Positions 33,115 through 62,200 of a stretch of DNA of 64,000 nucleotides are shown in pieces. Location of the stretch: NCBI GenBank assembly GCA_965235115.1, contig OZ249436.1, forward strand, positions 7,194,001 to 7,258,000, read 5' to 3'. The notes below the pieces were generated by a model that searched no databases, was not told the DNA's origin, and saw only the letters and a list, made by a program, of their open reading frames with translations. The position numbers and the translations under genes are program-made. Each line of letters starts with the position of its first letter. The stretch's first letter is position 1. This stretch comes from Laetmonice hystrix. Its lineage: Eukaryota.

Positions 33115-33115
33115 T

Positions 33116-33188
<73 letters not shown>

Positions 33189-33195: not shown

Positions 33196-33199
33196 GGAA

Positions 33200-34700: not shown

Positions 34701-34818
34701 CAAAATTGACATAATATCCTGTCTGGAAGAGTATGCCTATGTGTAGGCCTAATGAAGACACCATTCGTGGTATAGTCACCAATCTTGAATCACTAGGCCT
34801 ATAGCCTGTATAGGCCTA

Positions 34819-35207: not shown

Positions 35208-38200
35208 GCCTCACTGTAGTGTTCGCTTGGGTGCTAGGCCAGCCAGTACCTTGTAGCGATTCCTCACTGTACTGTTTTTCCTCCCTGTACCGTTTGCTTG
35301 AATACAACAGTAGCCATTAATATAGGGACGCCTCATCTTTCATGTTTCCATGCCTTTATTGTCCAGGAGGCAGGCCATACGTTTCGTCTATCATCTACTC
35401 CCATCTAATCTGTGTCCCCTACAAACCATCTGTAAGCGTGCGACAACGTTGTCAGGTCGTCCCAATGACTGTTTGCCGTAAAGGTTTAGTTAACAATGAC
35501 AAATGACGTTGTACGCCTTTTCTATATCAGATATCTCTTCCCCAAGTAAGAAACAAAGAAAGAAAGAGTACAGAGATATTGCAGACAAGAAACACCAGGG
35601 TGCAGCGCAGCTCTACTGAAGCGGCACGGGGGCGGCGACTGCACTGCCATCTTCCGGCTACCGGTGGAATCACCACGTATACCTGGCCGGGCTGGCGGGC
35701 ACCTGTGGCTCTTAGGTTAAAGCAATGAGAAGCGAAAAATGGCTACATTTCTGATACGTCAAATTAAAGCTACGCCCCCCAAAGTTATGATTCTTAGGCC
35801 AGATGTATAACTGTCAAACGTATAGGTCTCGTACGCTCGCTAGAGATATATGGTTGTGATGTGTAAACTTCCCATTTGAGTATCTTCTCCAGATTTTAAC
35901 ATTAGATGCTCCTCGCCAGTATCTTTCATTTCCACTACCTCACTGTAGTGTTTGCATGGCTACTAGGCAAGTCGGTAAGATGTAGGGACTTGTCACTCTA
36001 CTGGTTGGCCGCCCACACTGCTTGGCCTCACAGTGTACTGTTTGGCCTGACTGTACCCTTTGGCCTCACTGTAGTGTTCGCTTGGGTGCTAGGCCAGCCA
36101 GTACCTTGTAGCGATTCCTCACTGTACTGTTTGTCCTCCCTGTACCGTTTGCTTGAATACAACAGTAGCCATTAATATAGGGACGCCTCATGTTTCATGT
36201 TTCCATGCCTTTATTGTCCAGGAGGCAGGCCATACGTTTCGTCTATCATCTACTCCCATATGCATCTAATCTGTGTCCCCTACAGACCATCTGTAAGCGT
36301 GCGACAACGTTGTCAGATCGTCCCAATGACTGTTTGCCGTAAAGGTTTAGTTAACAATGACAAATGACGTTGTACGCCTTTTCTATATCAGATATCCATT
36401 AATATAGGGACGCCTCATGTTTCATGTTTCCATGCCTTAATTTATTGTCAAGGAGGCAGGCCATATACGTTTCGTCTATCATCTACTCCCATCTAATCTG
36501 TCTCCCCTACAGACTATCTGTAAGCGTGCGACAACGTTGTCAGGTCGTCCCAATGACTGTTTGCCGTGAAGGTTTAGTTAACAATGACAAATGACGTTGT
36601 ACGCCTTTTCTATATCAGATATCCCATCCCCAAGTAAGAAACAGAGAAAGAAAGAGTATTGCAGACAAGAAACACCAGGGTGCAGCGCAGCTCTACTGAA
36701 GCGGCACGGGGGCGGCGACTGCACTGCCATCTTCCGGCTACCGGTGGAATCACCATGTATACCTGGCCGGGCTGGCGGGCACCTGTGGCTCTTAGGTTAA
36801 AGCAATGAGAAGCGAAAAATGGCTACATTTCTGATACGTCAAATTAAAACTACGCCCCCCAAAGTTATGATTCTTAGGCCAGATGTATAACTGTCAAACG
36901 TATAGGTCTCGTACGTTCGCTACAGATATATGGTTGTGAAGTGTATACTTCCCATTTGAGTATCTTCTCCAGATTTTAACATTAGATGCTCCTCGCCAGT
37001 ATCTTTCATTTCCACTATCTCAATGTAGTGTTTGCATGGCTACTAGGCAAGTCGGTAAGATGTAGGGACTTGTCACTCTACTGGTTGGCCGGCCACACTG
37101 CTTGGCCTCACAGTGTACTCTTTGGCCTGACTGTACCCTTTGGCCTCACTGTAGTGTTCGCTTGGGTGCTAGGCCAGCCAGTACCTTGTAGCGATTCCTC
37201 ACTGTACTGTTTGTCCTCCCTGTACCGTTTGCTTGAATACAACAGTAGCCATTAATATAGGGACGCCTCATGTTTCATGTTTCCATGCCTTTATTGTCCA
37301 GGAGGCAGGCCATACGTTTCGTCTGATATCATCTACTCCCATCTAATCTGTGTCCCCTACAGACCATCTGTAAGCGTGCGACAACGTTGTCAGGTCGTCC
37401 CAATGACTGTTTGCCGTAAAGGTTTAGTTAACAATGACAAATGACGTTGTACGCCTTTTCTATATCAGATATCCCATCCCCAAGTAAGAAACAGAGAAAG
37501 AAAGAGTATTGCAGACAAGAAACACCAGGGTGCAGCGCAGTTGTACTGAAGCGGCACGGGGGCGGCGATTGCACTGCCATCTTCCGGCTACCGGTGGAAT
37601 CACCACGTTTTCCTGGCCGGGCTGGCGGGCACCTGTGGCTCTTAGGTTAAATCAATGACAAGCGAAAAATGGCTACATTTCTGATACGTCAAATTAAAAC
37701 TACGCCCCCCCCCCAAAGTTATTATTCTTAGGCCAGATGTATAACTGTCAAACGTATAGGTCTCGTACGTTCGCTAGAGATATATGGTTGTGATGTGTAT
37801 ACTTCCCATTTGAGTATCTTCTCCAGATTTTAACATTAGATGCTCCTCGCCAGTATCTTTCATTTCCACTACCTCACTGTAGTGTTTGCATGGCTACTAG
37901 GCAAGTCGGTAACATGTAGGGACTTGTCACTCTACTGGTTGGCCGGCCACACTGCTTGGCCTCACAGTGTAGGCCTACTGTTTGGCCTGACTGTACCCTT
38001 TGGCCTCACTGTAGTGTTCGCTTGGGTGCTAGGCCAGCCAGTACCTTGTAGCGATTCCTCACTGTACTGTTTGTCCTCCCTGTACCGTTTGCTTATATAC
38101 AACAGTAGCCATTAATATAGGGACGCCTCATGTTTCATGTTTCCATGCCTTTATTGTCCAGGAGGCAGGCCATACGTTTCGTCTGATATCATCTACTCCC

Positions 38201-41200
38201 ATCTAATCTGTGTCCCCTACAGACCATCTGTAAGCGTGCGACAACGTTGTCAGGTCGTCCCAATGACTGTTTGCCGTAAAGGTTTACTTAACAATGACAA
38301 ATGACGTTGTACGCCTTTTCTATATCAGATATCCCATCCCCAAGTAAGAAACAAAGAAAGAAAGAGTACAGAGATATTGCAGACAAGAAACACCAGGGTG
38401 CAGCGCAGCTCTACTAAAGCGGCACCGGGGCGGCGACGGCACTGCCATCTTCCGGCTACCGGTGGAATCACCACGTATACCTGGCCGGGCTGGCGGGCAC
38501 CTGTGGCTCTTAGGTTAAAGCAATGAGAAGCGAAAAATGGCTACATTTCGGATACGTCAAATTGAAACTACGCCCCCCAAAGTTATGATTCTTAGGCCAG
38601 ATGTATAACTGTCAAACGTATAGGTCTCGTACGTTCGCTACAGATATATGGTTGTGATGTGTATACTTCCCATTTGAGTATTTCTCCAGATTTTAACATT
38701 AGATGCTCCTCGCCAGTATCTTTCATTTCCGCTACCTCGCTGTAGTGTTTGCATGGCTACTAGGCAAGTCGGTAAGATGTAGGGACTTGTCACTCTACTG
38801 GTTGGCCGCCCACACTGCTTGGCCTCACAGTGTACTGTTTGGCCTGACTGTACTCTTTGGCCTCACTGTAGTGTTCGCTTGGGTGGTAGGCCAGCCAGTA
38901 CCTTGTAGCGATTCCTCACTGTACTGTTTGTCCTCCCTGTACCGTTTGCTTGAATACAACAGTAGCCATTAATATAGGGACGCCTCATGTTTCATGTTTC
39001 CATGCCTTTATTGTCCAGGAGGCAGGCCATACGTTTCGTCTATCATCTACTCCCATCTAATCTGTGTCCCCTACAGACCATCTGTAAGCGTGCGACAACG
39101 TTGTCAGGTCGTCCCAATGACTGTTTGCCGTAAAGGTTTAGTTAACAATGACAAATGGCGTTGTACGCCTTTTCTATATCAGATATCCCATCCCCAAGTA
39201 AGAAACAAAGAAAGAAAGAGTACAGAGATATTGCAGACAAGAAACACCAGGGTGCAGCGCAGCTCTACTGAAGCGGCACGGGGGCGGCGACTGCACTGCC
39301 ATCTTCCGGCTACCGGTGGAATCACCATGTATACCTGGCCGGGCTGGCGGGCACCTGTGGCTCTTAGGTTAAAGCAATGAGAAGCGAAAAATGGCTACAT
39401 TTCTGATACGTCAAATTAAAACTACGCCCCCCAAAGTTATGATTCTTAGGCCAGATGTATAACTGTCAAACGTATAGGTCTCGTACGTTCGCTACAGATA
39501 TATGGTTGTGATGTGTATACTTCCCATTTGAGTATCTTCTCCAGATTTTAACATTAGATGCTCCTCGCCAGTATCTTTCATTTCCACTATCTCAATGTAG
39601 TGTTTGCATGGCTACTAGGCAAGTCGGTAAGATGTAGGGACTTGTCACTCTACTGGTTGGCCGGCCACACTGCTTGGCCTCACAGTGTACTGTTTGGCCT
39701 GACTGTACCCTTTGGCCTCACTGTAGTGTTCGCTTGGGTGCTAGGCCAGCCAGTACCTTGTAGCGATTCCTCACTGTACTGTTTGTCCTCCCTATACCGT
39801 TTGCTTGAATACAACAGTAGCCATTAATATAGGGATGCCTCATGTTTCCATGCCTTTATTGTCCAGGAAGCAGGCCATACGTTTCGTCTATCATCTACTC
39901 CCATCTAGTCTCTGTGCCCTACATACCATCTGTAAGCGTGCGACAACGTTGTCAGGTCGTCCCAATGACTGTTTGCCGTAAAGGTTTAGTTAACAATGAC
40001 AAATGACGTTGTACGCCTTTTCTATATCAGATATCCCATCCCCAAGTAAGAAACAGAGAAAGAAAGAGTATTGCAGACAAGAAACACCAGGGTGCAGCGC
40101 AGTTGTACTGAAGCGGCACTGGGGCGGCGATTGCACTGCCATCTTCCGGCGACCGGTGGAATCACCATGTATACCTGGCCGGGCTGGCGGGCACCTGTGG
40201 CTCTTAGGTTAAAGCAATGAGAAGCGAAAAATGGCTACATTTCTGATACGTCAAATTAAAACTACGCCCCCCAAAGTTATGATTCTTAGGCCAGATGTAT
40301 AACTGTCAAACGTATAGGTCTCGTACGTTCGCTACAGATATATGGTTGTGATGTGTATACTTCCCATTTGAGTATCTTCTCCAGATTTTAACATTAGATG
40401 CTCCTCGCCAGTATCTTTCATTTCCACTACCTCACTGTAGTGTTTGCATGGCTACTAGGCCAGTCCGTAAGATGTAGGGACTTGTCACTCTACTGGTTGG
40501 CCGGCCACACTGCTTGGCCTCACAGTGTACTGTTTGGCCTGACTGTACCCTTTGGCCTCACTGTAGTGTTCGCTTGGGTGCTAGGCCAGCCAGTACCTTG
40601 TAGCGATTCCTCACAGTACTGTTTGTCCTCCCTGTACCGTTTGCTTGAATACAACAGAGGCCATTAATATAGGGATGCCTCATGTTTCCATGCCTTTATT
40701 GTCCAGGAAGCAGGCCATACGTTTCGTCTATCATCTAGGCCTACTCCCATCTAGTCTCTGTGCCCTACATACCATCTGTAAGCGTGCGACAACGTTGTCA
40801 GGTCGTCCCAATGACTGTTTGCCGTAAAGGTTTAGTTAACAATGACAAATGACGTTGTACGCCTTTTCTATATCAGATATCCCATCCCCAAGTAAGAAAC
40901 AGAGAAAGAAAGAGTATTGCAGACAAGAAACACCAGGGTGCAGCGCAGCTCTACTGAAGCGGCACGGGGGCGGCGACTGCACTGCCATCTTCCGGCTACC
41001 GGTGGAATCACCATGTATACCTGGCCGGGCTGGCGGGCACCTGTGGCTCTTAGGTTAAAGCAATGAGAAGCGAAAAATGGCTACATTTCTGATACGTCAA
41101 ATTAAAACTACGCCCCCCAAAGTTATGATTCTTAGGCCAGATGTATAACTGTCAAACGTATAGGTCTCGTACGTTCGCTACAGATATATGGTTGTGATGT

Positions 41201-44200
41201 GTATACTTCCCATTTGAGTATCTTCTCCAGATTTTAACATTAGATGCTCCTCGCCAGTATCTTTCATTTCCACTATCTCAATGTAGTGTTTCCATGGCTA
41301 CTAGGCAAGTCGGTAAGATGTAGGGACTTGTCACTCTACTGGTTGGCCGGCCACACTGCTTGGCCTCACAGTGTACTGTTTGGCCTGACTGTACCCTTTG
41401 GCCTCACTGTAGTGTTCGCTTGGGTGCTAGGCCAGCCAGTACCTTGTAGCGATTCCTCACTGTACTGTTTGTCCTCCCTGTACCGTTTGCTTGAATACAA
41501 CAGTAGCCATTAATATAGGGACGCCTCATGTTTCATGTTTCCATGCCTTTATTGTCCAGGAGGCAGGCCATACGTTTCGTCTGATATCATCTACTCCCAT
41601 CTAATCTGTGTCCCCTACAGACCATCTGTAAGCGTGCGACAACGTTGTCAGGTCGTCCCAATGACTGTTTGCCGTAAAGGTTTAGTTAACAATGACAAAT
41701 GACGTTGTACGCCTTTTCTATATCAGATATCCCATCCCCAAGTAAGAAACAGAGAAAGAAAGAGTATTGCAGACAAGAAACACCAGGGTGCAGCGCAGTT
41801 GTACTGAAGCGGCACTGGGGCGGCGATTGCACTGCCATCTTCCGGCTACCGGTGGAATCACCACGTTTTCCTGGCCGGGCTGGCGGGGACCTGTGGCTCT
41901 TAGGTTAAATCAATGACAAGCGAAAAATGGCTACATTTCTGATACGTCAAATTAAAACTACGCCCCCCCCCCCAAAGTTATTATTCTTAGGCCAGATGTA
42001 TAACTGTCAAACGTATAGGTCTCGTACGTTCGCTACAGATATATGGTTGTGATGTGTATACTTCCCATTTGAGTATCTTCTCCAGATTTTAACATTAGAG
42101 GCTCCTCGCCAGTATATTTAATTTCCCCTACCTCATTGTAGTGTTTGCATGGGTACTAGGCAAGTCGGTAAGATGTAGGGACTTGTCACTCTACTGGTTG
42201 GCCGCCCACACTGCTTGGCCTCACAGTGTACTGTTTGGCCTGACTGTACCCTTTGGCCTCACTGTAGTGTTCGCTTGGGTGCTAGGCCAGCCAGTACCTT
42301 GTAGCGATTCCTCACTGTACTGTTTGTCCTCCCTGTACCGTTTGCTTGAATACAACAGTAGCCATTAATATAGGGACGCCTCATGTTTCATGTTTCCATG
42401 CCTTTATTGTCCAGGAGGCAGGCCATACGCTTCGTCTGATATCATCTACTCCCATCTAATCTGTGTCCCCTACAGACCATCTGTAAGCGTGCGACAACGT
42501 TGTCAGGTCGTCCCAATGACTGTTTGCCGTAAAGGTTTAGTTAACAATGACAAATGACGTTGTACGCCTTTTCTATATCAGATATCCCATCCCCAAGTAA
42601 GAAACAGAGAAAGAAAGAGTATTGCAGACAAGAAACACCAGGGTGCAGCGCAGCTCTACTGAAGCGGCACGGGGGCGGCGACTGCACTGCCATCTTCCGG
42701 CTACCGGTGGAATCACCATGTATACCTGGCCGGGCTGGCGGGCACCTGTGGCTCTTAGGTTAAAGCAATGAGAAGCGAAAAATGGCTACATTTCGGATAC
42801 GTCAAATTAAAACTACGCCCCCCAAAGTTATGATTCTTAGGCCAGATGTATAACTGTCAAACGTATAGGTCTCGTACGTTCGCTACAGATATATGGTTGT
42901 GATGTGTATACTTCCCATTTGAGTATTTCTCCAGATTTTAACATTAGATGCTCCTCGCCAGTATCTTTCATTTCCGCTACCTCGCTGTAGTGTTTGCATA
43001 GCTACTAGGCAAGTCGGTAAGATGTAGGGACTTGTCACTCTACTGGTTGGCCGCCCACACTGCTTGGCCTCACAGTGTACTGTTTGGCCTGACTGTACTC
43101 TTTGGCCTCACTGTAGTGTTCGCTTGGGTGGTAGGCCAGCCAGTACCTTGTAGCGATTCCTCACTGTACTGTTTGTCCTCCCTGTACCGTTTGCTTGAAT
43201 ACAACAGTAGCCATTAATATAGGGACGCCTCATGTTTCATGTTTCCATGCCTTTATTGTCCAGGAGGCAGGCCATACGTTTCGTCTATCATCTACTCCCA
43301 TCTAATCTGTGTCCCCTACAGACCATCTGTAAGCGTGCGACAACGTTGTCAGGTCGTCCCAATGACTGTTTGCCGTAAAGGTTTAGTTAACAATGACAAA
43401 TGGCGTTGTACGCCTTTTCTATATCAGATATCCCATCCCCAAGTAAGAAACAAAGAAAGAAAGAGTACAGAGATATTGCAGACAAGAAACACCAGGGTGC
43501 AGCGCAGCTCTACTGTAGCGGCACGGGGGCGGCGACTGCACTGCCATCTTCCGGCTACCGGTGGAATCACCACGTATACCTGGCCGGGCTGGCGGGCACC
43601 TGTGGCTCTTAGGTTAAAGCAATGAGAAGCGAAAAATGGCTACATTTCGGATACGTCAAATTGAAACTACGCCCCCCAAAGTTATGATTCTTAGGCCAGA
43701 TGTATAACTGTCAAACGTATAGGTCTCGTACGTTCGCTACAGATATATGGTTGTGATGTGTATACTTCCCATTTGAGTATTTCTCCAGATTTTAACATTA
43801 GATGCTCCTCGCCAGTATCTTTCATTTCCGCTACCTCGCTGTAGTGTTTGCATGGCTACTAGGCAAGTCGGTAAGATGTAGGGACTTGTCACTCTACTGG
43901 TTGGCCGCCCACACTGCTTGGCCTCACAGTGTACTGTTTGGCCTGACTGTACTCTTTGGCCTCACTGTAGTGTTCGCTTGGGTGGTAGGCCAGCCAGTAC
44001 CTTGTAGCGATTCCTCACTGTACTGTTTGTCCTCCCTGTACCGTTTGCTTGAATACAACAGTAGCCATTAATATAGGGACGCCTCATGTTTCATGTTTCC
44101 ATGCCTTTATTGTCCAGGAGGCAGGCCATACGTTTCGTCTATCATCTACTCCCATCTAATCTGTGTCCCCTACAGACCATCTGTAAGCGTGCGACAACGT

Positions 44201-47200
44201 TGTCAGGTCGTCCCAATGACTGTTTGCCGTAAAGGTTTAGTTAAAAATGACAAATGACGTTGTACGCCTTTTCTATATCAGATATCCCATCCCCAAGTAA
44301 GAAACAGAGAAAGAAAGAGTATTGCAGACAAGAAACACCAGGGTGCAGCGCAGCTCTACTGAAGCGGCACTGGGGCGGCGATTGCACTGCCATCTTCCGG
44401 CGACCGGTGGAATCACCACGTTTTCTTGCCCGGGCTGGCGGGCACCTGTGGCTCTTAGGTTAAAGCAATGAGAAGCGAAAAATGGCTACATTTCTGATAC
44501 GTCAAATTAAAACTACGCCCCCCAAAGTTATGATTCTTAGGCCAGATGTATAACTGTCAAACGTATAGGTCTCGTACGTTCGCTACAGATATATGGTTGT
44601 GATGTGTATACTTCCCATTTGAGTATCTTCTCCAGATTTTAACATTAGAGGCTCCTCGCCAGTATATTTAATTTCCCCTACCTCATTGTAGTGTTTGCAT
44701 GGGTACTAGGCAAGTCGGTAAGATGTAGGGACTTGTCACTCTACTGGTTGGCCGCCCACACTGCTTGGCCTCACAGTGTACTGTTTGGCCTGACTGTACC
44801 CTTTGGCCTCACTGTAGTGTTCGCTTGGGTGCTAGGCCAGCCAGTACCTTGTAGCGATTCCTCACTGTACTGTTTGTCCTCCCTGTACCGTTTGCTTGAA
44901 TACAACAGTAGCCATTAATATAGGGACGCCTCATGTTTCATGTTTCCATGCCTTTATTGTCCAGGAGGCAGGCCATACGCTTCGTCTGATATCATCTACT
45001 CCCATCTAATCTGTGTCCCCTACAGACCATCTGTAAGCGTGCGACAACGTTGTCAGGTCGTCCCAATGACTGTTTGCCGTAAAGGTTTAGTTAACAATGA
45101 CAAATGACGTTGTACGCCTTTTCTATATCAGATATCCCATCCCCAAGTAAGAAACAGAGAAAGAAAGAGTATTGCAGACAAGAAACACCAGGGTGCAGCG
45201 CAGCTCTACTGAAGCGGCACGGGGGCGGCGACTGCACTGCCATCTTCCGGCTACCGGTGGAATCACCATGTATACCTGGCCGGGCTGGCGGGCACCTGTG
45301 GCTCTTAGGTTAAAGCAATGAGAAGCGAAAAATGGCTACATTTCGGATACGTCAAATTAAAACTACGCCCCCCAAAGTTATGATTCTTAGGCCAGATGTA
45401 TAACTGTCAAACGTATAGGTCTCGTACGTTCGCTACAGATATATGGTTGTGATGTGTATACTTCCCATTTGAGTATCTTCTCCAGATTTTAACATTAGAT
45501 GCTCCTCGCCAGTATCTTTCATTTCCACTATCTCAATGTAGTGTTTCCATGGCTACTAGGCAAGTCGGTAAGATGTAGGGACTTGTCACTCTACTGGTTG
45601 GCCGGCCACACTGCTTGGCCTCACAGTGTACTGTTTGGCCTGACTGTACCCTTTGGTCTCACTGTAGTGTTCGCTTGGGTGCTAGGCCAGCCAGTACCTT
45701 GTAGCGATTCCTCACTGTACTGTTTGTCCTCCCTGTACCGTTTGCTTGAATACAACAGTAGCCATTAATATAGGGATGCCTCATGTTTCCATGCCTTTAT
45801 TGTCCAGGAAGCAGGCCATACGTTTCGTCTATCATCTACTCCCATCTAGTCTCTGTGCCCTACATACCATCTGTAAGCGTGCGACAACGTTGTCAGGTCG
45901 TCCCAATGACTGTTTGCCGTAAAGGTTTAGTTAACAATGACAAATGACGTTGTACGCCTTTTCTATATCAGATATCCCATCCCCAAGTAAGAAACAGAGA
46001 AAGAAAGAGTATTGCAGACAAGAAACACCAGGGTGCAGCGCAGCTCTACTGAAGCGGCACGGGGGCGGCGACTGCACTGCCATCTTCCGGCTACCGGTGG
46101 AATCACCATGTATACCTGGCCGGGCTGGCGGGCACCTGTGGCTCTTAGGTTAAAGCAATGAGAAGCGAAAAATGGCTACATTTCTGATACGTCAAATTAA
46201 AACTACGCCCCCCAAAGTTATGATTCTTAGGCCAGATGTATAACTGTCAAACGTATAGGTCTCGTACGTTCGCTACAGATATATGGTTGTGATGTGTATA
46301 CTTCCCATTTGAGTATCTTCTCCAGATTTTAACATTAGATGCTCCTCGCCAGTATCTTTCATTTCCACTATCTCAATGTAGTGTTTCCATGGCTACTAGG
46401 CAAGTCGGTAAGATGTAGGGACTTGTCACTCTACTGGTTGGCCGGCCACACTGCTTGGCCTCACAGTGTACTGTTTGGCCTGACTGTACCCTTTGGCCTC
46501 ACTGTAGTGTTCGCTTGGGTGCTAGGCCAGCCAGTACCTTGTAGCGATTCCTCACTGTACTGTTTGTCCTCCCTGTACCGTTTGCTTGAATACAACAGTA
46601 GCCATTAATATAGGGACGCCTCATGTTTCATGTTTCCATGCCTTTATTGTCCAGGAGGCAGGCCATACGTTTCGTCTGATATCATCTACTCCCATCTAAT
46701 CTGTGTCCCCTACAGACCATCTGTAAGCGTGCGACAACGTTGTCAGGTCGTCCCAATGACTGTTTGCCGTAAAGGTTTAGTTAACAATGACAAATGACGT
46801 TGTACGCCTTTTCTATATCAGATATCCCATCCCCAAGTAAGAAACAGAGAAAGAAAGAGTATTGCAGACAAGAAACACCAGGGTGCAGCGCAGTTGTACT
46901 GAAGCGGCACGGGGGCGGCGACTGCACTGCCATCTTCCGGCTACCGGTGGAATCACCATGTATACCTGGCCGGGCTGGCGGGCACCTGTGGCTCTTAGGT
47001 TAAAGCAATGAGAAGCGAAAAATGGCTACATTTCTGATACGTCAAATTAAAACTACGCCCCCCAAAGTTATGATTCTTAGGCCAGATGTATAACTGTCAA
47101 ACGTATAGGTGTCGTACGTTCGCTACAGATATATGGTTGTGATGTGTATACTTCCCATTTGAGTATCTTCTCCAGATTTTAACATTAGAGGCTCCTCGCC

Positions 47201-50200
47201 AGTATATTTCATTACCACTACCTCACTGTAGTGTTTGCATGGCTACTAGGCAAGTCGGTAAGATGTAGGGACTTGTCACTCTACTGGTTGGCCGGCCACA
47301 CTGCTTGGCCTCACAGTGTACTGTTTGGCCTGACTGTACCCTTTGGCCTCACTGTAGTGTTCGCTTGGGTGCTAGGCCAGCCAGTACCTTGTAGCGATTC
47401 CTCACTGTACTGTTTGTCCTCCCTGTACCGTTTGCTTGAATACAACAGTAGCCATTAATATAGGGATGCCTCATGTTTCCATGCCTTTATTGTCCAGGAA
47501 GCAGGCCATACGTTTCGTCTATCATCTACTCCCATCTAGTCTCTGTGCCCAAATGACGTTGTACGCCTTTTCTATATCAGATATCCCATCCCCAAGTAAG
47601 AAACAGAGAAAGAAAGAGTATTGCAGACAAGAAACACCAGGGTGCAGCGCAGCTCTACTGAAGCGGCACGGGGGCGGCGACTGCACTGCCATCTTCCGGC
47701 TACCGGTAGAATCACCATGTATACCTGGCCGGGCTGGCGGGCACCTGTGGCTCTTAGGTTAAAGCAATGAGAAGCGAAAAATGGCTACATTTCTGATACG
47801 TCAAATTAAAATTACGCCCCCCAAAGTTATGATTCTTAGGCCAGATGTATAACTGTCAAACGTATAGGTCTCGTACGTTCGCTACAGATATATGGTTGTG
47901 ATGTGTATACTTCCCATTTGAGTATCTTCTCCAGATTTTAACATTAGATGCTCCTCGCCAGTATCTTTCATTTCCACTATCTCAATGTAGTGTTTGCATG
48001 GCTACTAGGCAAGTCGGTAAGATGTAGGGACTTGTCACTCTACTGGTTGGCCGGCCACACTGCTTGGCCTCACAGTGTACTGTTTGGCCTGACTGTACCC
48101 TTTGGCCTCACTGTAGTTTTCGCTTGGGTGCTAGGCCAGCCAGTACCTTGTAGCGATTCCTCACTGTACTGTTTGTCCTCCCTGTACCGTTTGCTTGAAT
48201 ACAACAGTAGCCATTAATATAGGGACGCCTCATGTTTCATGTTTCCATGCCTTTATTGTCCAGGAGGCAGGCCATACGTTTCGTCTGATATCATCTACTC
48301 CCATCTAATCTGTGTCCCCTACAGACCATCTGTAAGCGTGCGACAACGTTGTCAGGTCGTCCCAATGACTGTTTGCCGTAAAGGTTTAGTTAACAATGAC
48401 AAATGACGTTGTACGCCTTTTCTATATCAGATATCCCATCCCCAAGTAAGAAACAGAGAAAGAAAGAGTATTGCAGACAAGAAACACCAGGGTGCAGCGC
48501 AGCTCTACTGAAGCGGCACGGGGGCGGCGACTGCACTGCCATCTTCCGGCTACCGGTAGAATCACCATGTATACCTGGCCGGGCTGGCGGGCACCTGTGG
48601 CTCTTAGGTTAAAGCAATGAGAAGCGAAAAATGGCTACATTTCTGATACGTCAAATTAAAACTACGCCCCCCAAAGTTATGATTCTTAGGCCAGATGTAT
48701 AACTGTCAAACGTATAGGTCTCGTACGTTCGCTACAGATATATGGTTGTGATGTGTATACTTCCCATTTGAGTATCTTCTCCAGATTTTAACATTACATG
48801 CTCCTCGCCAGTATCTTTCATTTCCACTATCTCAATGTAGTGTTTGCATGGCTACTAGGCAAGTCGGTAAGATGTAGGGACTTGTCACTCTACTGGTTGG
48901 CCGGCCACACTGCTTGGCCTCACAGTGTACTGTTTGGCCTGACTGTACCCTTTGGCCTCACTGTAGTGTTCGCTTGGGTGCTAGGCCAGCCAGTACCTTG
49001 TAGCGATTCCTCACTGTACTGTTTGTCCTCCCTGTACCGTTTGCTTGAATACAACAGTAGCCATTAATATAGGGACGCCTCATGTTTCATGTTTCCATGC
49101 CTTTATTGTCCAGGAGGCAGGCCATACGTTTCGTCTGATATCATCTACTCCCATCTAATCTGTGTCCCCTACAGACCATCTGTAAGCGTGCGACAACGTT
49201 GTCAGGTCGTCCCAATGACTGTTTGCCGTAAAGGTTTAGTTAACAATGACAAATGACGTTGTACGCCTTTTCTATATCAGATATCCCATCCCCAAGTAAG
49301 AAACAGAGAAAGAAAGAGTATTGCAGACAAGAAACACCAGGGTGCAGCGCAGCTCTACTGAAGCGGCACGGGGGCGGCGACTGCACTGCCATCTTCCGGC
49401 TACCGGTGGAATCACCATGTATACCTGGCCGGGCTGGCGGGCACCTGTGGCTCTTAGGTTAAAGCAATGAGAAGCGAAAAATGGCTACATTTCTGATACG
49501 TCAAATTAAAACTACGCCCCCCAAAGTTATGATTCTTAGGCCAGATGTATAACTGTCAAACGTATAGGTCTCGTACGTTCGCTACAGATATATGGTTGTG
49601 ATGTGTATACTTCCCATTTGAGTATCTTCTCCAGATTTTAACATTAGATGCTCCTCGCCAGTATCTTTCATTTCCACTATCTCAATGTAGTGTTTCCATG
49701 GCTACTAGGCAAGTCGGTAAGATGTAGGGACTTGTCACTCTACTGCGGGTTGGCCGGCCACACTGCTTGGCCTCACAGTGTACTGTTTGGCCTGACTGTA
49801 CCCTTTGGCCTCACTGTAGTGTTCGCTTGGGTGCTAGGCCAGCCAGTACCTTGTAGCGATTCCTCACTGTACTGTTTGTCCTCCCTGTACCGTTTGCTTG
49901 AATACAACAGTAGCCATTAATATAGGGACGCCTCATGTTTCATGTTTCCATGCCTTTATTGTCCAGGAGGCAGGCCATACGTTTCGTCTGATATCATCTA
50001 CTCCCATCTAATCTGTGTCCCCTACAGACCATCTGTAAGCGTGCGACAACGTTGTCAGGTCGTCCCAATGACTGTTTGCCGTAAAGGTTTAGTTAACAAT
50101 GACAAATGACGTTGTACGCCTTTTCTATATCAGATATCCCATCCCCAAGTAAGAAACAGAGAAAGAAAGAGTATTGCAGACAAGAAACACCAGGGTGCAG

Positions 50201-53200
50201 CGCATCTCTACTGAAGCGGCACGGGGGCGGCGACTGCACTGCCATCTTCCGGCTACCGGTGGAATCACCATGTATACCTGGCCGGGCTGGCGGGCACCTG
50301 TGGCTGTTAGGTTAAAGCAATGAGAAGCGAAAAATGGCTACATTTCTGATACGTCAAATTAAAACTACGCCCCCCCAAGTTATGATTCTTAGGCCAGATG
50401 TATAACTGTCAAACGTATAGGTCTGGTACGTTCGCTACAGATATATGGTTGTGATGTGTATACTTCCCTTTTGAGTATCTTCTCCAGATTTTAACATTAG
50501 ATGCTCCTCGCCAGTATCTTTCATTTCCACTACCTCACTGTAGTGTTTGCATGGCTACTAGGCAAGTCGGTAAGATGTAGGGACTTGTCACTCTACTGGT
50601 TGGCCGGCCACACTGCTTGGCCTCACAGTGTACTGTTTGGCCTGACTGTACCCTTTGGCCTCACTGTAGTGTTCGCTTGGGTGCTAGGCCAGCCAGTACC
50701 TTGTAGCGATTCCTCACTGTACTGTTTGTCCTCCCTGTACCGTTTGCTTGAATACAACACAGGCCATTAATATAGGGATGCCTCATGTTTCCATGCCTTT
50801 ATTGTCCAGGAAGCAGGCCATACGTTTCGTCTATCATCTAGGCCTACTCCCATCTAGTCTCTGTGCCCTACATACCATCTGTAAGCGTGCGACAACGTTG
50901 TCAGGTCGTCCCAATGACTGTTTGCCGTAAAGGTTTAGTTAACAATGACAAATGACGTTGTACGCCTTTTCTATATCAGATATCCCATCCCCAAGTAAGA
51001 AACAGAGAAAGAAAGAGTATTGCAGACAAGAAACACCAGGGTGCAGCGCAGCTCTATTGAAGCGGCACGGGGGCGGCGACTGCACTGCCATCTTCCGGCT
51101 ACCGGTAGAATCACCATGTATACCTGGCCGGGCTGGCGGGCACCTGTGGCTCTTAGGTTAAAGCAATGAGAAGCGAAAAATGGCTACATTTCTGATACGT
51201 CAAATTAAAACTACGCCCCCCAAAGTTATGATTCTTAGGCCAGATGTATAACTGTCAAACGTATAGGTCTCGCACGTTCGCTACAGATATATGGTTGTGA
51301 TGTGTATACTTCCCATTTGAGTATCTTCTCCAGATTTTAACATTAGATGCTCCTCGCCAGTATCTTTCATTTCCACTATCTCAATGTAGTGTTTGCATGG
51401 CTACTAGTCAAGTCGGTAAGATGTAGGGACTTGTCACTCTACTGGTTGGCCGGCCACACTGCTTGGCCTCACAGTGTACTGTTTGGCCTGACTGTACCCT
51501 TTGGCCTCACTGTAGTGTTCGCTTGGGTGCTAGGCCAGCCAGTACCTTGTAGCGATTCCTCACTGTACTGTTTGTCCTCCCTGTACCGTTTGCTTGAATA
51601 CAACAGTAGCCATTAATATAGGGACGCCTCATGTTTCATGTTTCCATGCCTTTATTGTCCAGGAGGCAGGCCATACGTTTCGTCTGATATCATCTACTCC
51701 CATCTAATCTGTGTCCCCTACAGACCATCTGTAAGCGTGCGACAACGTTGTCAGGTCGTCCCAATGACTGTTTGCCGTAAAGGTTTAGTTAACAATGACA
51801 AATGACGTTGTACGCCTTTTCTATATCAGATATCCCATCCCCAAGTAAGAAACAAAGAAAGAAAGAGTACAGAGATATTGCAGACAAGAAACACCAGGGT
51901 GCACCGCAGATCTACTAAAGCGGCACGGGGGCGGCGACGGCACTGCCATCTTCCGGCTACCGGTGGAATCACCACGTATACCTGGCCGGGCTGGCGGGCA
52001 CCTGTGGCTCTTAGGTTAAAGCAATGAGAAGCGAAAAATGGCTACATTTGGGATACGTCAAATTGAAACTACGCCCCCCAAAGTTATGATTCTTAGGCCA
52101 GATGTATAACTGTCAAACGTATAGGTCTCGTACGTTCGCTACAGATATATGGTTGTGATGTGTATACTTCCCATTTGAGTATTTCTCCAGATTTTAACAT
52201 TAGATGCTCCTCGCCAGTATCTTTCATTTCCGCTACCTCGCTGTAGTGTTTGCATGGCTACTAGGCAAGTCGGTAAGATGTAGGGACTTGTCACTCTACT
52301 GGTTGGCCGCCCACACTGCTTGGCCTCACAGTGTACTGTTTGGCCTGACTGTACTCTTTGGCCTCACTGTAGTGTTCGCTTGGGTGCTAGGCCAGCCAGT
52401 ACCTTGTAGCGATTCCTCACTGTACTGTTTGTCCTCCCTGTACCGTTTGCTTGAATACAACAGTAGCCATTAATATAGGGACGCCTCATGTTTCATGTTT
52501 CCATGCCTTTATTGTCCAGGAGGCAGGCCATACGTTTCGTCTGATATCATCTACTCCCATCTAATCTGTGTCCCCTACAGACCATCTGTAAGCGTGCGAC
52601 AACGTTGTCAGGTCGTCCCAATGACTGTTTGCCGTAAAGGTTTAGTTAACAATGACAAATGACGTTGTACGCCTTTTCTATATCAGATATCCCATCCCCA
52701 AGTAAGAAACAGAGAAAGAAAGAGTATTGCAGACAAGAAACACCAGGGTGCAGCGCAGCTCTACTGTAGCGGCACGGGGGCGGCGACTGCACTGCCATCT
52801 TCCGGCTACCGGTGGAATCACCACGTATACCTGGCCGGGCTGGCGGGTACCTGTGGCTCTTAGGTTAAAGCAATGAGAAGCGAAAAAATGGCTACATTTC
52901 GGATACGTCAAATTGAAACTACGCCCCCCAAAGTTATGATTCTTAGGCCAGATGTATAACTGTCAAACGTATAGGTCTCGTACGTTCGCTACAGATATAT
53001 GGTTGTGATGTGTATACTTCCCATTTGAGTATTTCTCCAGATTTTAACATTAGATGCTCCTCGCCAGTATCTTTCATTTCCGCTACCTCGCTGTAGTGTT
53101 TGCATGGCTACTAGGCAAGTCGGTAAGATGTAGGGACTTGTCACTCTACTGGGTGGCCGCCCACACTGCTTGGCCTCACAGTGTACTGTTTGGCCTGACT

Positions 53201-56200
53201 GTACTCTTTGGCCTCACTGTAGTGTTCGCTTGGGTGGTAGGCCAGCCAGTACCTTGTAGCGATTCCTCACTGTACTGTTTGTCCTCCCTGTACCGTTTGC
53301 TTGAATACAACAGTAGCCATTAATATAGGGACGCCTCATGTTTCATGTTTCCATGCCTTTATTGTCCAGGAGGCAGGCCATACGTTTCGTCTATCATCTA
53401 CTCCCATCTAATCTGTGTCCCCTACAGACCATCTGTAAGCGTGCGACAACGTTGTCAGGTCGTCCCAATGACTGTTTGCCGTAAAGGTTTAGTTAACAAT
53501 GACAAATGACGTTGTACGCCTTTTCTATATCAGATATCCCATCCCCAAGTAAGAAACAGAGAAAGAAAGAGTATTGCAGACAAGAAACACCAGGGTGCAG
53601 CGCAGCTCTACTGAAGCGGCACGGGGGCCGCGACTGCACTGCCATCTTCCGGCTACCGGTGGAATCACCATGTATACCTGGCCGGGCTGGCGGGCACCTG
53701 GGGCTCTTAGGTTAAAGCAATGAGAAGCGAAAAATGGCTACATTTCTGATACGTCAAATTAAAACTACGCCCCCCAAAGTTATGATTCTTAGGCCAGATG
53801 TATAACTGTCAAACGTATAGGTCTCGTACGTTCGCTACAGATATATGGTTGTGATGTGTATACTTTCCATTTGAGTATCTTCTCCAGATTTTAACATTAG
53901 ATGCTCCTCGCCAGTATCTTTCATTTCCACTATCTCAATGTAGTGTTTCCATGGCTACTAGGCAAGTCGGTAAGATGTAGGGACTTGTCACTCTACTGGT
54001 TGGCCGGCCACACTGCTTGGCCTCACAGTGTACTGTTTGGCCTCACTGTACCCTTTGGCCTCACTGTAGTGTTCGCTTGGGTGCTAGGCCAGCCAGTACC
54101 TTGTAGCGATTCCTCACTGTACTGTTTGTCCTCCCTGTACCGTTTGCTTGAATACAACAGTAGCCATTAATATAGGGACGCCTCATGTTTCATGTTTCCA
54201 TGCCTTTATTGTCCAGGAGGCAGGCCATACGTTTCGTCTGATATCATCTACTCCCATCTAATCTGTGTCCCCTACAGACCATCTGTAAGCGTGCGACAAC
54301 GTTGTCAGGTCGTCCCAATGACTGTTTGCCGTAAAGGTTTAGTTAACAATGACAAATGACGTTGTACGCCTTTTCTATATCAGATATCCCATCCCCAAGT
54401 AAGAAACAGAGAAAGAAAGAGTATTGCAGACTAGAAACACCAGGGTGCAGCGCAGTTGTACTGAAGCGGCACTGGGGCGGCGATTGCACTGCCATCTTCC
54501 GGCTACCGGTGGAATCACCACGTTTTCCTGGCCGGGCTGGCGGGCACCTGTGGCTCTTAGGTTAAAGCAATGAGAAGCGAAAAATGGCTACATTTCTGAT
54601 ACGTCGAATTAAAACTACGCCCCCCCCCCCCAAAGTTATTATTCTTAGGCCAGATGTATAACTGTCAAACGTATAGGTCTCGTACGTTCGCTAGAGATAT
54701 ATGGTTGTGATGTGTATACTTCCCATTTGAGTATCTTCTCCAGATTTTAACATTAGATGCTCCTCGCCAGTATCTTTCATTTCCACTACCTCACTGTAGT
54801 GTTTGCATGGCTACTAGGCAAGTCGGTAACATGTAGGGACTTGTCACTCTACTGGTTGGCCGCCCACACTGCTTGGCCTCACAGTGTAGGCCTACTGTTT
54901 GGCCTGACTGTACCCTTTGGCCTCACTGTAGTGTTCGCTTGGGTGCTAGGCCAGCCAGTACCTTGTAGCGATTCCTCACTGTACTGTTTGTCCTCCCTGT
55001 ACCGTTTGCTTGAATACAACAGTAGCCATTAATATAGGGACGCCTCATGTTTCATGTTTCCATGCCTTTATTGTCCAGGAGGCAGGCCATACGTTTCGTC
55101 TGATATCATCTACTCCCATATAATCTGTGTCCCCTACAGACCATCTGTAAGCGTGCGACAACGTTGTCAGGTCGTCCCAATGACTGTTTGCCGTAAAGGT
55201 TTACTTAACAATGACAAATGACGTTGTACGCCTTTTCTATATCAGATATCCCATCCCCAAGTAAGAAACAAAGAAAGAAAGAGTACAGAGATATTGCAGA
55301 CAAGAAACACCAGGGTGCAGCGCAGCTCTACTGAAGCGGCACGGGGGCGGCGACGGCACTGCCATCTTCCGGCTACCGGTGGAATCACCACGTATACCTG
55401 GCCGGGCTGGCGGGCACCTGTGGCTCTTAGGTTAAAGCAATGAGAAGCGAAAAATGGCTACATTTCGGATACGTCAAATTGAAACTACGCCCCCCAAAGT
55501 TATGATTCTTAGGCCAGATGTATAACTGTCAAACGTATAGGTCTCGTACGTTCGCTACAGATATATGGTTGTGATGTGTATACTTCCCATTTGAGTATCT
55601 TCTCCAGATTTTAACATTAGATGCTCCTCGCCAGTATCTTTCATTTCCGCTACCTCGCTGTAGTGTTTGCATGGCTACTAGGCAAGTCGGTAAGATGTAG
55701 GGACTTGTCACTCTACTGGTTGGCCGCCCACACTGCTTGGCCTCACAGTGTACTGTTTGGCCTGACTGTACTCTTTGGCCTCACTGTAGTGTTCGCTTGG
55801 GTGCTAGGCCAGCCAGTACCTTGTAGCGATTCCTCACTGTACTGTTTGTCCTCCCTGTACCGTTTGCTTGAATACAACAGTAGCCATTAATATAGGGACG
55901 CCTCATGTTTCATGTTTCCATGCCTTTATTGTCCAGGAGGCAGGCCATACGTTTCGTCTATCATCTACTCCCATCTAATCTGTGTCCCCTACAGACCATC
56001 TGTAAGCGTGCGACAACGTTGTCAGGTCGTCCCAATGACTGTTTGCCGTAAAGGTTTAGTTAACAATGACAAATGGCGTTGTACGCCTTTTCTATATCAG
56101 ATATCCCATCCCCAAGTAAGAAACAAAGATAGAAAGAGTACAGAGATATTGCAGACAAGAAACACCAGGGTGCAGCGCAGCTCTACTGTAGCGGCACGGG

Positions 56201-59200
56201 GGCGGCGACTGCACTGCCATCTTCCGGCTACCGGTGGAATCACCACGTATACCTGGCCGGGCTGGCGGGCACCTGTGGCTCTTAGGTTAAAGCAATGAGA
56301 AGCGAAAAATGGCTACATTTCGGATACGTCAAATTGAAACTACGCCCCCCAAAGTTATGATTCTTAGGCCAGATGTATAACTGTCAAACGTATAGGTCTC
56401 GTACGTTCGCTACAGATATATGGTTGTGATGTGTATACTTCCCATTTGAGTATTTCTCCAGATTTTAACATTAGATGCTCCTCGCCAGTATCTTTCATTT
56501 CCGCTACCTCGCTGTAGTGTTTGCATGGCTACTAGGCAAGTCGGTAAGATGTAGGGACTTGTCACTCTACTGGTTGGCCGCCCACACTGCTTGGCCTCAC
56601 AGTGTACTGTTTGGCCTGACTGTACTCTTTGGCCTCACTGTAGTGTTCGCTTGGGTGGTAGGCCAGCCAGTACCTTGTAGCGATTCCTCACTGTACTGTT
56701 TGTCCTCCCTGTACCGTTTGCTTGAATACAACAGTAGCCATTAATATAGGGACGCCTCATGTTTCATGTTTCCATGCCTTTATTGTCCAGGAGGCAGGCC
56801 ATACGTTTCGTCTCTCATCTACTCCCATCTAATCTGTGTCCCCTACAGACCATCTGTAAGCGTGCGACAACGTTGTCAGGTCGTCCCAATGACTGTTTGC
56901 CGTAAAGGTTTAGTTAAAAATGACAAATGACGTTGTACGCCTTTTCTATATCAGATATCCCATCCCCAAGTAAGAAACAGAGAAAGAAAGAGTATTGCAG
57001 ACAAGAAACACCAGGGTGCAGCGCAGCTCTACTGAAGCGGCACTGGGGCGGCGATTGCACTGCCATCTTCCGGCTACCGGTGGAATCACCACGTTTTCTT
57101 GCCCGGGCTGGCGGGCACCTGTGGCTCTTAGGTTAAAGCAATGAGAAGCGAAAAATGGCTACATTTCTTATACGTCAAATTAAAACTACGCCCCCCAAAG
57201 TTATGATTCTTAGGCCAGATGTATAACTGTCAAACGTATAGGTCTCGTACGTTCGCTACAGATATATGGTTGTGATGTGTATACTTCCCATTTGAGTATC
57301 TTCTCCAGATTTTAACATTAGAGGCTCCTCGCCAGTATATTTAATTTCCCCTACCTCATTGTAGTGTTTGCATGGGTACTAGGCAAGTCGGTAAGATGTA
57401 GGGACTTGTCACTCTACTGGTTGGCCGCCCACACTGCTTGGCCTCACAGTGTACTGTTTGGCCTGACTGTACCCTTTGGCCTCACTGTAGTGTTCGCTTG
57501 GGTGCTAGGCCAGCCAGTACCTTGTAGCGATTCCTCACTGTACTGTTTGTCCTCCCTGTACCGTTTGCTTGAATACAACAGTAGCCATTAATATAGGGAC
57601 GCCTCATGTTTCATGTTTCCATGCCTTTATTGTCCAGGAGGCAGGCCATACGCTTCGTCTGATATCATCTACTCCCATCTAATCTGTGTCCCCTACAGAC
57701 CATCTGTAAGCGTGCGACAACGTTGTCAGGTCGTCCCAATGACTGTTTGCCGTAAAGGTTTAGTTAACAATGACAAATGACGTTGTACGCCTTTTCTATA
57801 TCAGATATCCCATCCCCAAGGAAGAAACAGAGAAAGAAAGAGTATTGCAGACAAGAAACACCAGGGTGCAGCGCAGCTCTACTGAAGCGGCACGGGGGCG
57901 GCGACTGCACTGCCATCTTCCGGCTACCGGTGGAATCACCACGTTTTCTTGCCCGGGCTGGCGGGCACCTGTGGCTCTTAGGTTAAAGCAATGAGAAGCG
58001 AAAAATGGCTACATTTCTGATACGTCAAATTAAAACTACGCCCCCCAAAGTTATGATTCTTAGGCCAGATGTATAACTGTCAAACGTATAGGTCTCGTAC
58101 GTTCGCTACAGATATATGGTTGTGATGTGTATACTTCCCATTTGAGTATCTTCTCCAGATTTTAACATTAGAGGCTCCTCGCCAGTATATTTAATTTCCC
58201 CTACCTCATTGTAGTGTTTGCATGGGTACTAGGCAAGTCGGTAAGATGTAGGGACTTGTCACTCTACTGGTTGGCCGCCCACACTGCTTGGCCTCACAGT
58301 GTACTGTTTGGCCTGACTGTACCCTTTGGCCTCACTGTAGTGTTCGCTTGGGTGCTAGGCCAGCCAGTACCTTGTAGCGATTCCTCACTGTACTGTTTGT
58401 CCTCCCTGTACCGTTTGCTTGAATACAACAGTAGCCATTAATATAGGGACGCCTCATGTTTCATGTTTCCATGCCTTTATTGTCCAGGAGGCAGGCCATA
58501 CGCTTCGTCTGATATCATCTACTCCCATCTAATCTGTGTCCCCTACAGACCATCTGTAAGCGTGCGACAACGTTGTCAGGTCGTCCCAATGACTGTTTGC
58601 CGTAAAGGTTTAGTTAACAATGACAAATGACGTTGTACGCCTTTTCTATATCAGATATCCCATCCCCAAGTAAGAAACAGAGAAAGAAAGAGTATTGCAG
58701 ACAAGAAACACCAGGGTGCAGCGCAGCTCTACTGTAGCGGCACGGGGGCGGCGACTGCACTGCCATCTTCCGGCTACCGGTGGAATCACCACGTATACCT
58801 GGCCGGGCTGGCGGGTACCTGTGGCTCTTAGGTTAAAGCAATGAGAAGCGAAAAAATGGCTACATTTCGGATACGTCAAATTGAAACTACGCCCCCCAAA
58901 GTTATGATTCTTAGGCCAGATGTATAACTGTCAAACGTATAGGTCTCGTACGTTCGCTACAGATATATGGTTGTGATGTGTATACTTCCCATTTGAGTAT
59001 TTCTCCAGATTTTAACATTAGATGCTCCTCGCCAGTATCTTTCATTTCCGCTACCTCGCTGTAGTGTTTGCATGGCTACTAGGCAAGTCGGTAAGATGTA
59101 GGGACTTGTCACTCTACTGGGTGGCCGCCCACACTGCTTGGCCTCACAGTGTACTGTTTGGCCTGACTGTACTCTTTGGCCTCACTGTAGTGTTCGCTTG

Positions 59201-62200
59201 GGTGGTAGGCCAGCCAGTACCTTGTAGCGATTCCTCACTGTACTGTTTGTCCTCCCTGTACCGTTTGCTTGAATACAACAGTAGCCATTAATATAGGGAC
59301 GCCTCATGTTTCATGTTTCCATGCCTTTATTGTCCAGGAGGCAGGCCATACGTTTCGTCTATCATCTACTCCCATCTAATCTGTGTCCCCTACAGACCAT
59401 CTGTAAGCGTGCGACAACGTTGTCAGGTCGTCCCAATGACTGTTTGCCGTAAAGGTTTAGTTAACAATGACAAATGACGTTGTACGCCTTTTCTATATCA
59501 GATATCCCATCCCCAAGTAAGAAACAGAGAAAGAAAGAGTATTGCAGACAAGAAACACCAGGGTGCAGCGCAGCTCTACTGAAGCGGCACGGGGGCCGCG
59601 ACTGCACTGCCATCTTCCGGCTACCGGTGGAATCACCATGTATACCTGGCCGGGCTGGCGGGCACCTGGGGCTCTTAGGTTAAAGCAATGAGAAGCGAAA
59701 AATGGCTACATTTCTGATACGTCAAATTAAAACTACGCCCCCCAAAGTTATGATTCTTAGGCCAGATGTATAACTGTCAAACGTATAGGTCTCGTACGTT
59801 CGCTACAGATATATGGTTGTGATGTGTATACTTTCCATTTGAGTATCTTCTCCAGATTTTAACATTAGATGCTCCTCGCCAGTATCTTTCATTTCCACTA
59901 TCTCAATGTAGTGTTTCCATGGCTACTAGGCAAGTCGGTAAGATGTAGGGACTTGTCACTCTACTGGTTGGCCGGCCACACTGCTTGGCCTCACAGTGTA
60001 CTGTTTGGCCTCACTGTACCCTTTGGCCTCACTGTAGTGTTCGCTTGGGTGCTAGGCCAGCCAGTACCTTGTAGCGATTCCTCACTGTACTGTTTGTCCT
60101 CCCTGTACCGTTTGCTTGAATACAACAGTAGCCATTAATATAGGGACGCCTCATGTTTCATGTTTCCATGCCTTTATTGTCCAGGAGGCAGGCCATACGT
60201 TTCGTCTGATATCATCTACTCCCATCTAATCTGTGTCCCCTACAGACCATCTGTAAGCGTGCGACAACGTTGTCAGGTCGTCCCAATGACTGTTTGCCGT
60301 AAAGGTTTAGTTAACAATGACAAATGACGTTGTACGCCTTTTCTATATCAGATATCCCATCCCCAAGTAAGAAACAGAGAAAGAAAGAGTATTGCAGACT
60401 AGAAACACCAGGGTGCAGCGCAGTTGTACTGAAGCGGCACTGGGGCGGCGATTGCACTGCCATCTTCCGGCTACCGGTGGAATCACCACGTTTTCCTGGC
60501 CGGGCTGGCGGGCACCTGTGGCTCTTAGGTTAAAGCAATGAGAAGCGAAAAATGGCTACATTTCTGATACGTCGAATTAAAACTACGCCCCCCCCCCCCA
60601 AAGTTATTATTCTTAGGCCAGATGTATAACTGTCAAACGTATAGGTCTCGTACGTTCGCTAGAGATATATGGTTGTGATGTGTATACTTCCCATTTGAGT
60701 ATCTTCTCCAGATTTTAACATTAGATGCTCCTCGCCAGTATCTTTCATTTCCACTACCTCACTGTAGTGTTTGCATGGCTACTAGGCAAGTCGGTAACAT
60801 GTAGGGACTTGTCACTCTACTGGTTGGCCGCCCACACTGCTTGGCCTCACAGTGTAGGCCTACTGTTTGGCCTGACTGTACCCTTTGGCCTCACTGTAGT
60901 GTTCGCTTGGGTGCTAGGCCAGCCAGTACCTTGTAGCGATTCCTCACTGTACTGTTTGTCCTCCCTGTACCGTTTGCTTGAATACAACAGTAGCCATTAA
61001 TATAGGGACGCCTCATGTTTCATGTTTCCATGCCTTTATTGTCCAGGAGGCAGGCCATACGTTTCGTCTGATATCATCTACTCCCATATAATCTGTGTCC
61101 CCTACAGACCATCTGTAAGCGTGCGACAACGTTGTCAGGTCGTCCCAATGACTGTTTGCCGTAAAGGTTTACTTAACAATGACAAATGACGTTGTACGCC
61201 TTTTCTATATCAGATATCCCATCCCCAAGTAAGAAACAAAGAAAGAAAGAGTACAGAGATATTGCAGACAAGAAACACCAGGGTGCAGCGCAGCTCTACT
61301 GAAGCGGCACGGGGGCGGCGACGGCACTGCCATCTTCCGGCTACCGGTGGAATCACCACGTATACCTGGCCGGGCTGGCGGGCACCTGTGGCTCTTAGGT
61401 TAAAGCAATGAGAAGCGAAAAATGGCTACATTTCGGATACGTCAAATTGAAACTACGCCCCCCAAAGTTATGATTCTTAGGCCAGATGTATAACTGTCAA
61501 ACGTATAGGTCTCGTACGTTCGCTACAGATATATGGTTGTGATGTGTATACTTCCCATTTGAGTATCTTCTCCAGATTTTAACATTAGATGCTCCTCGCC
61601 AGTATCTTTCATTTCCGCTACCTCGCTGTAGTGTTTGCATGGCTACTAGGCAAGTCGGTAAGATGTAGGGACTTGTCACTCTACTGGTTGGCCGCCCACA
61701 CTGCTTGGCCTCACAGTGTACTGTTTGGCCTGACTGTACTCTTTGGCCTCACTGTAGTGTTCGCTTGGGTGCTAGGCCAGCCAGTACCTTGTAGCGATTC
61801 CTCACTGTACTGTTTGTCCTCCCTGTACCGTTTGCTTGAATACAACAGTAGCCATTAATATAGGGACGCCTCATGTTTCATGTTTCCATGCCTTTATTGT
61901 CCAGGAGGCAGGCCATACGTTTCGTCTATCATCTACTCCCATCTAATCTGTGTCCCCTACAGACCATCTGTAAGCGTGCGACAACGTTGTCAGGTCGTCC
62001 CAATGACTGTTTGCCGTAAAGGTTTAGTTAACAATGACAAATGGCGTTGTACGCCTTTTCTATATCAGATATCCCATCCCCAAGTAAGAAACAAAGATAG
62101 AAAGAGTACAGAGATATTGCAGACAAGAAACACCAGGGTGCAGCGCAGCTCTACTGTAGCGGCACGGGGGCGGCGACTGCACTGCCATCTTCCGGCTACC

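Follow-up and report, generated by a model that had tools for sequence, protein, structure and literature searches.

In a 64,000-nucleotide stretch of Laetmonice hystrix DNA (contig OZ249436.1, positions 7,194,001 to 7,258,000; hereafter the window), a satellite array contains units in which a plain TA has become TAGGCCTA, a gain of six letters that leaves a GGCC core between two TAs. We favour the reading, with a probability of roughly 0.58, that these gains are excision scars of a cut-and-paste DNA transposon that would target TA and is predicted from the sequence to end in GGC. The data show the gain itself, the direction that it took at three sites, its independent origin at two of them and the spectrum of related words; that an element came and left is the step that we infer from them. 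Of the two halves of cut-and-paste transposition, excision is the less visible one, and here it would be countable.

Two independent gains in a satellite array

The monomers of the array (Table 1) have a mean pairwise divergence of 2.05%, and the summed depth over the array was very high in pooled contigs, which come from three runs of one sample (X1 below is one of the contig sets cited). The coordinates given in the original prediction for the long alleles of the array all proved exact. The long allele was present in 3 of 33 copies at site 1 and in 2 of 35 copies at site 2. In both cases the empty allele is one TA, the two contexts being GTAC and CTAC, and the derived allele has a TA on each side of the core; an alternative alignment that places AGGCCT between the T and the A, without a duplication, is formally equivalent. 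The probability that a random insertion of six letters would turn TA into TAGGCCTA is about 5e-5, and two such gains are therefore not chance.

We built a tree of the monomers from which the three indels had been stripped, using 30 of the 32 complete units; of the two left aside, one has an internal duplication and the other a deletion. The tree has no root and most of it is unresolved (4 of 21 inner branches starred), but the three carriers of the long allele at site 1 formed one clade, as did the two carriers at site 2, the latter nested with empty units in a larger clade (support values in Table 1). Two of the site 1 carriers lie in a duplication that was perfect over the part compared (4236 of 4236 letters) and that may be either a very recent event or an assembly duplicate. 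Since the carriers fall into one clade per site, and 54887 and 60855 are copies within this duplication, we take the five TAGGCCTA words of the array to be two independent events, each spread by duplication of the array. The original prediction was thus right that the same gain had occurred at two unrelated TA sites, and its five sites overstate the number of events. Read error, which it had named as a possible refutation, is unlikely because each insertion is common to units with several differences elsewhere.

The long allele is well supported as the derived state at site 1, at site 2 and at a third TAGGCCTA word, in a dispersed repeat at 33471. Site 1 is part of a short sub-repeat whose other copies have a plain TA, both in one monomer stretch (7 of 7 sub-repeats listed) and in the neighbouring 52-bp array (12 of 12 units listed); since most of the tree is unresolved and it has no root, this comparison with paralogs carries the main weight for direction. 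The tree nevertheless keeps the two long clades separate, the site 2 clade being nested among empty units, and 0 of 32 units carried both inserts, so that a doubly long ancestor would require several exact losses. At 33471 the dominant contig is the short form (6917 of 7505 depth at 33473 in X1), in which the absence of six letters (1+5) erases the motif and one further substitution remains. Polarising the indels with an alignment and a tree, as had been proposed, therefore supports the view that the TAGGCCTA gains arose by insertion and postdate the start of array amplification.

The original prediction also listed a third variant, at site 3, as a like gain, and here we disagree. Its long allele, found in 9 of 34 copies, comes with an A upstream in every one of the 9 units, and loose ends of pooled contigs at 35570 revealed a more diverged monomer type that has the same A and an even longer allele, although this evidence is one-sided since the reference unit bore the long allele. 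The long form is probably ancestral and the short form a deletion between TAs; alternatively, the insert could be a templated copy of the ACAGAGA immediately upstream. Because its core is CAGAGA rather than GGCC, the upstream A is linked and the long form occurs in the diverged monomer type, site 3 does not belong to the GGCC process.

Table 1. Positions of the features discussed, in window coordinates (a point marks features given without strand)
Feature	Position	Strand	Basis or remark
Field of 21 independent TAGGCCTA words around the glutathione peroxidase (GPx) and calpain genes	15072..34818	.	87-bp tandem counted as one
Nested scar-like words TA-GGCC-TA-CCGG-TA	25127..25140	.	
Putative double scar TA-GGCC-TA-GGCC-TA	32887..32900	.	
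TAGGCCTA in dispersed repeat	33471..33478	.	High-depth family contig without the 1+5 letters
Degenerate 52-bp array sharing the site 1 sub-repeat	33923..34554	+	Internal outgroup
Satellite array, ~850-bp monomer, ~34 units	~35221..64000	.	Extends past window end
Site 3 long allele TA-CAGAGA-TA, 9 units	35569..35578	+	Motif, linkage and loose ends at 35570
Site 1 putative scar TAGGCCTA, event 1	37970..37977	.	Clade 90/94 with 54887 and 60855, indels stripped
Site 2 putative scar TAGGCCTA, event 2	40736..40743	.	Clade 99/95 inside 91/99 clade with empty units
Site 2 putative scar TAGGCCTA, event 2 copy	50839..50846	.	Motif and tree
Perfect duplication, seven monomers, period 5968 bp	52536..64000	.	
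Site 1 putative scar TAGGCCTA, event 1 copy	54887..54894	.	Motif and tree
Site 1 putative scar TAGGCCTA, copy of 54887	60855..60862	.	Within perfect 5968-bp-period duplication

The array differs between its units in other ways. One monomer contains a 227-bp internal duplication (36169-36624), another has a deletion of about 90 bp (~47400-48150), and there is a six-letter gain of ATGCAT type near 36253. In the pooled contigs, other monomers have TA to TATA gains at 35246 and 35963 (52 and 35 X1 contigs), which are either pure target duplications or slippage, and loose ends at 35715 show about 11 additional letters bounded by AGG that all units of the window are without. An inverted copy of monomer positions 416-488 lies immediately upstream of the array (34604-34676, 81% identity) and, together with the 52-bp array, points to a monomer composed of older repeats. 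A monomer 21-mer had 0 matches among the metagenome contigs and an Rfam scan of 33000-38000 gave 0 matches.

The word outside the array and in other DNA

We counted TAGGCCTA and related words outside the array, from 14901 to 35200, taking an 87-bp tandem repeat as one, and class them by the number of letters gained over a plain TA. The +6 word TAGGCCTA was observed 21 times against 0.31 expected, and the +5 words TAGGCTA/TAGCCTA 6 times against 1.7, a number reached in 0 of 100 simulations, whereas the +4 words TAGGTA/TACCTA were not enriched (8 against 8.7). Two words with other cores were also in excess, namely TACATGTA (core CATG; 5 against 0.56) and TAGATCTA (core GATC; 3 against 0.25), which suggests further scar families; over the whole window, TACCGGTA words occur at 9677, 11558 and 25133. 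T is favoured at position -2 of the flanks and a purine at -1, and clustering of the putative scars within 60 bp is marginal (7 against 2.9, P=0.049). The tandem repeat (19311-21387) has 24 copies, each with TAGGCCTA in the middle of a 24-bp near-palindrome; this minisatellite probably amplified a pre-existing scar.

Words with one mismatch to TAGGCCTA were only slightly in excess (13 against 6.8, compared with 21 exact words), and the scars therefore appear to be young, with a mean age of about 0.035, i.e. about 3.5% divergence, by arithmetic on that excess. In this exposed region 1.6% of TAs (21 of 1333) are scarred. The satellite provides a rough clock, with two gains per at least 101 substitutions: over 63 TAs and 850 columns this gives about 0.27 gains per TA per substitution per base, with a wide error as it rests on n=2. 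At 0.27, by arithmetic, 1.6% of TAs would be scarred in about 0.06 substitutions per site, and the array rate agrees with the scarred fraction outside the array and its apparent age.

The window is animal DNA, with exons of calpain and GPx; the best single-domain calpain match is from an annelid (67%) and one GPx match is from a nemertean (58%). The first part of the window (1-14900) is an intron-rich gene region with an observed/expected CpG ratio of about 0.5-0.7, and it has no TAGGCCTA in 1109 TAs against the 21 in 1333 TAs downstream (P=3e-6). Judged from the CpG content at one boundary in one window, this may reflect gene-body methylation. Such a gap over a CpG-poor gene body points to an influence of chromatin state on where these small insertions arise.

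A cluster pattern also matched at least 120 stretches of metagenome DNA (an estimated 4200 or so in the whole collection), on eukaryote-like contigs from pooled hosts, none of which resembles the window. From 80 listed loci we used 66, having dropped 8 by name (tandem, telomeric or atypical ones) and the others because of their GC content, and we masked the discovery clusters before counting. The spectrum was the same, with +6 at 147 against 2.9, +5 at 109 against 22 and +4 at 83 against 82; +7 words were enriched (17 against 0.8), and control single-letter deletions stood at 20 against 15.6. As the +5 excess (87) is similar to the combined excess of all 24 single substitutions (96), decay alone is unlikely to be the source of the +5 words. 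One related pair of loci (L016/L120) has TA in one and TAGGCCTA in the other.

Proposed excision and its alternatives

Tc1/mariner-type elements cut a few bases inside their ends, and non-homologous end joining turns the 3' overhangs into footprints of 2-4 nt between TAs (PMC6943129, PMC7913693, PMC2874221, PMC10045372), while TA target site duplications (TSDs) are general for ITm elements (PMC10045372). In the mechanism that we propose, an element would insert at TA and duplicate it, and its excision, by a cut 3 nt inward from either end, would leave each flank with a GGC-3' overhang. These overhangs could pair via their last two bases (GC), after which filling of the 1-nt gaps and ligation would give TA-GGCC-TA (+6); full overlap of the overhangs with a central mismatch would give TAGGCTA/TAGCCTA (+5), as in Sleeping Beauty. 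Unequal crossing-over or duplication would then spread scarred monomers through the array. A GGC end with 3-nt overhangs would lead to +6 and +5 words without +4, as was counted, and the core has the length of a 2-4-nt footprint and is identical at unrelated sites (GGCC at the two array sites and at 21 outside). The spectrum predicts both the termini (GGC) and the cut geometry of an element that matches no family checked, which should ease the search for it, and the excess of TAGGCCTA is not evidence for a regulatory motif.

Several points weigh against excision of such an element. No TA|GGC...GCC|TA element was found in 36 kb of the window or in 389 kb of other loci. No filled site was seen at scarred sites in the same 36 kb and 389 kb or in the best rows of one sample's pooled contigs; what the original prediction called scarred sites are thus sites with a derived gain, for which a scar is our interpretation. 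The insertions at sites 1 and 2 were not among the best 12 of 286 indel rows from the pooled contigs, which says nothing either way. No Pfam transposase domain was found in 105 open reading frames (ORFs) of the window or in 36 of the 105 long ORFs of the other loci. No TA-TSD family that we checked starts with GGC: the Sailor data contain 0 TATAGGC, and MS elements, which have TA duplications, show no GGC start among the supplement rows covered. Repair after germline Tc1 excision in Caenorhabditis elegans is heterogeneous, with 26 products in 103 animals (PMC4490562), and the typical somatic Tc1 scar is +4, in 78% of cases (PMC13148408), so a uniform +6 needs either favoured annealing or another process. 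The +5 class could come from another element, and the +7 enrichment implies that GG/CC slippage makes part of it. Lastly, it is strictly true, as originally claimed, that GGCC is not adjacent to either TA, but words containing GGCC do lie within 30 bp of either array site.

TA-targeting elements do exist here, since a TA-flanked miniature inverted-repeat transposable element (MITE) with CCTG...CAGG (CC) ends occupies 28278-28712. A palindromic MITE (28335-28517) is nested in it; this and a MITE-like element at 16002-16125 were rejected as the parent for want of matching TA flanks. Scans for TA|GG ends yielded no convincing terminal inverted repeats (TIRs); matches in the metagenome loci L058 and L060 were discarded because their flanks are also inverted, which places the matches inside longer palindromes. 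Two high-copy, TTAA-flanked MITE-like elements (29497-29762 and 29982-30115) are presumably Kolobok-like. The passages considered from PMC7386202, PMC9179366, PMC3673617 and PMC4455052 name no GGC-ended TA family. There was no published description of a TAGGCCTA scar among the literature matches listed, a coverage that excludes most subscription papers and Repbase Reports.

It is possible, though we doubt it, that the words are excision scars of a different geometry, left either by a GGCC-ended element with 4-nt cohesive overhangs, which we take to resemble a Minos-like stagger, or by a GG-ended element whose 2-nt overhangs are filled on both sides. Either variant yields a uniform +6 palindrome, and the 2+2 version accounts for the other enriched cores, CATG and GATC, being palindromes; overhangs of 2 nt are also known for Tc1 (PMC4490562). 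However, a 2-nt element should leave +4 scars as well, as somatic Tc1 does (PMC13148408), and +4 was not enriched, while a 4-nt element gives no prediction of the +5 excess.

A rather unlikely reading of broader scope is that fixed insertion of GGC/GGCC at TA is an ongoing mutational process in its own right, found in several animal lineages, proceeding per exposed TA at about a quarter of the per-base substitution rate and kept from CpG-poor, likely methylated gene bodies, with either a transposon group not yet classified or no resident element behind it. The version without any element is unlikely: a transposase-like or host enzyme would cut TA with a 2-nt stagger and insert or add a fixed GGC/GGCC oligonucleotide (through abortive integration or terminal addition), and a full element would never have been in place. 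The uniform product, the high rate per TA and the lack of a parent in the window fit such a process. Against it, we know of no enzyme that would add a fixed GGC/GGCC at TA, absence from the window is weak evidence because a family with a few thousand copies would occur less than once in 36 kb, and several cores (GGCC, CATG, GATC, CCGG) are a better fit to several element families than to one enzyme.

Templated insertion during end joining, of the polymerase theta type, would copy GGCC from nearby DNA, and words suited to this lie close by: around site 1, GGCCT at -12 and +8 and TAGGCC at +54, and near site 2, AGGCC at -27. Germline repair often produces templated inserts (PMC4490562), but they vary in length and sequence. 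We consider this explanation very unlikely, since a template within 40 bp was present at 2 of 21 unique scars compared with 207 of 1285 ordinary TAs (16%), and 21 of 63 monomer TAs have one, which makes its presence at both array sites unremarkable. It is highly improbable that the long alleles are ancestral and that most units dropped GGCCTA by deletion between TA repeats, the other refuting case named at the outset. Such microhomology deletion is plausible, and probably accounts for site 3, and the tree is unrooted and weakly resolved; however, the older paralogous sub-repeats are all empty, the root cannot fall on both long clades, no unit has both inserts and the family contig at 33471 is short, by which this case is already largely refuted. 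Telomerase-type addition of G to both TA-ended break ends followed by head-to-head joining (TAGG+CCTA) can hardly be credited, for although TAGG fits the register of the animal telomere repeat and a +7 class is present, TAGGG/CCCTA was not enriched (30 against 37), the length is fixed and the other cores are unrelated to telomere repeats.

Comparison with known systems

Without its parent element, the putative scar is of a known kind; what is new here is the polarisation, the rate, the +6/+5 spectrum with no +4, and the gap over a CpG-poor gene. Some families resemble the predicted element in their termini. Zator termini are reportedly GG. Zator and PIF/Harbinger were both rejected as the maker because they duplicate 3 bp (TWA for Harbinger), whereas 2 bp are duplicated at the array sites and TWA is absent from them, even though both have termini of purine or GG type (PMC10045372, PMC4482050). 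ISL2EU/IS4EU elements are alike in TIRs that mostly start with GG and in their animal distribution (PMC4482050), but they duplicate AT within A|AT|T, including IS4EU-1_BF and IS4EU-2_DR, and the sites here are G-TA-C and C-TA-C (PMC4482050, PMC4122938). Sailor (DD82E) has a TATA target duplication (PMC8533490), and there is no TATA at either array site.

Two further comparisons are with Tc1 and Sleeping Beauty. Tc1 of C. elegans (PMC4490562, PMC13148408) shares the TA duplication and the retention of element ends, but it has 2-nt overhangs and leaves +4 scars in the soma and heterogeneous products in the germline, whereas the product here is uniform with no enrichment of +4. Compared with ITm footprints such as the TACAGTA/TACTGTA of Sleeping Beauty (PMC6943129), the core here is GGC/GGCC instead of CAG/CTG, the +6 palindrome dominates, and the putative scars occur at about one per kb in an assembled genome with the parent not found. 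ITm footprints and the words described here are alike in that one TA is replaced by two TAs with a short fixed core between them, in the presence of a +5 class and in flanks that lean towards AT.

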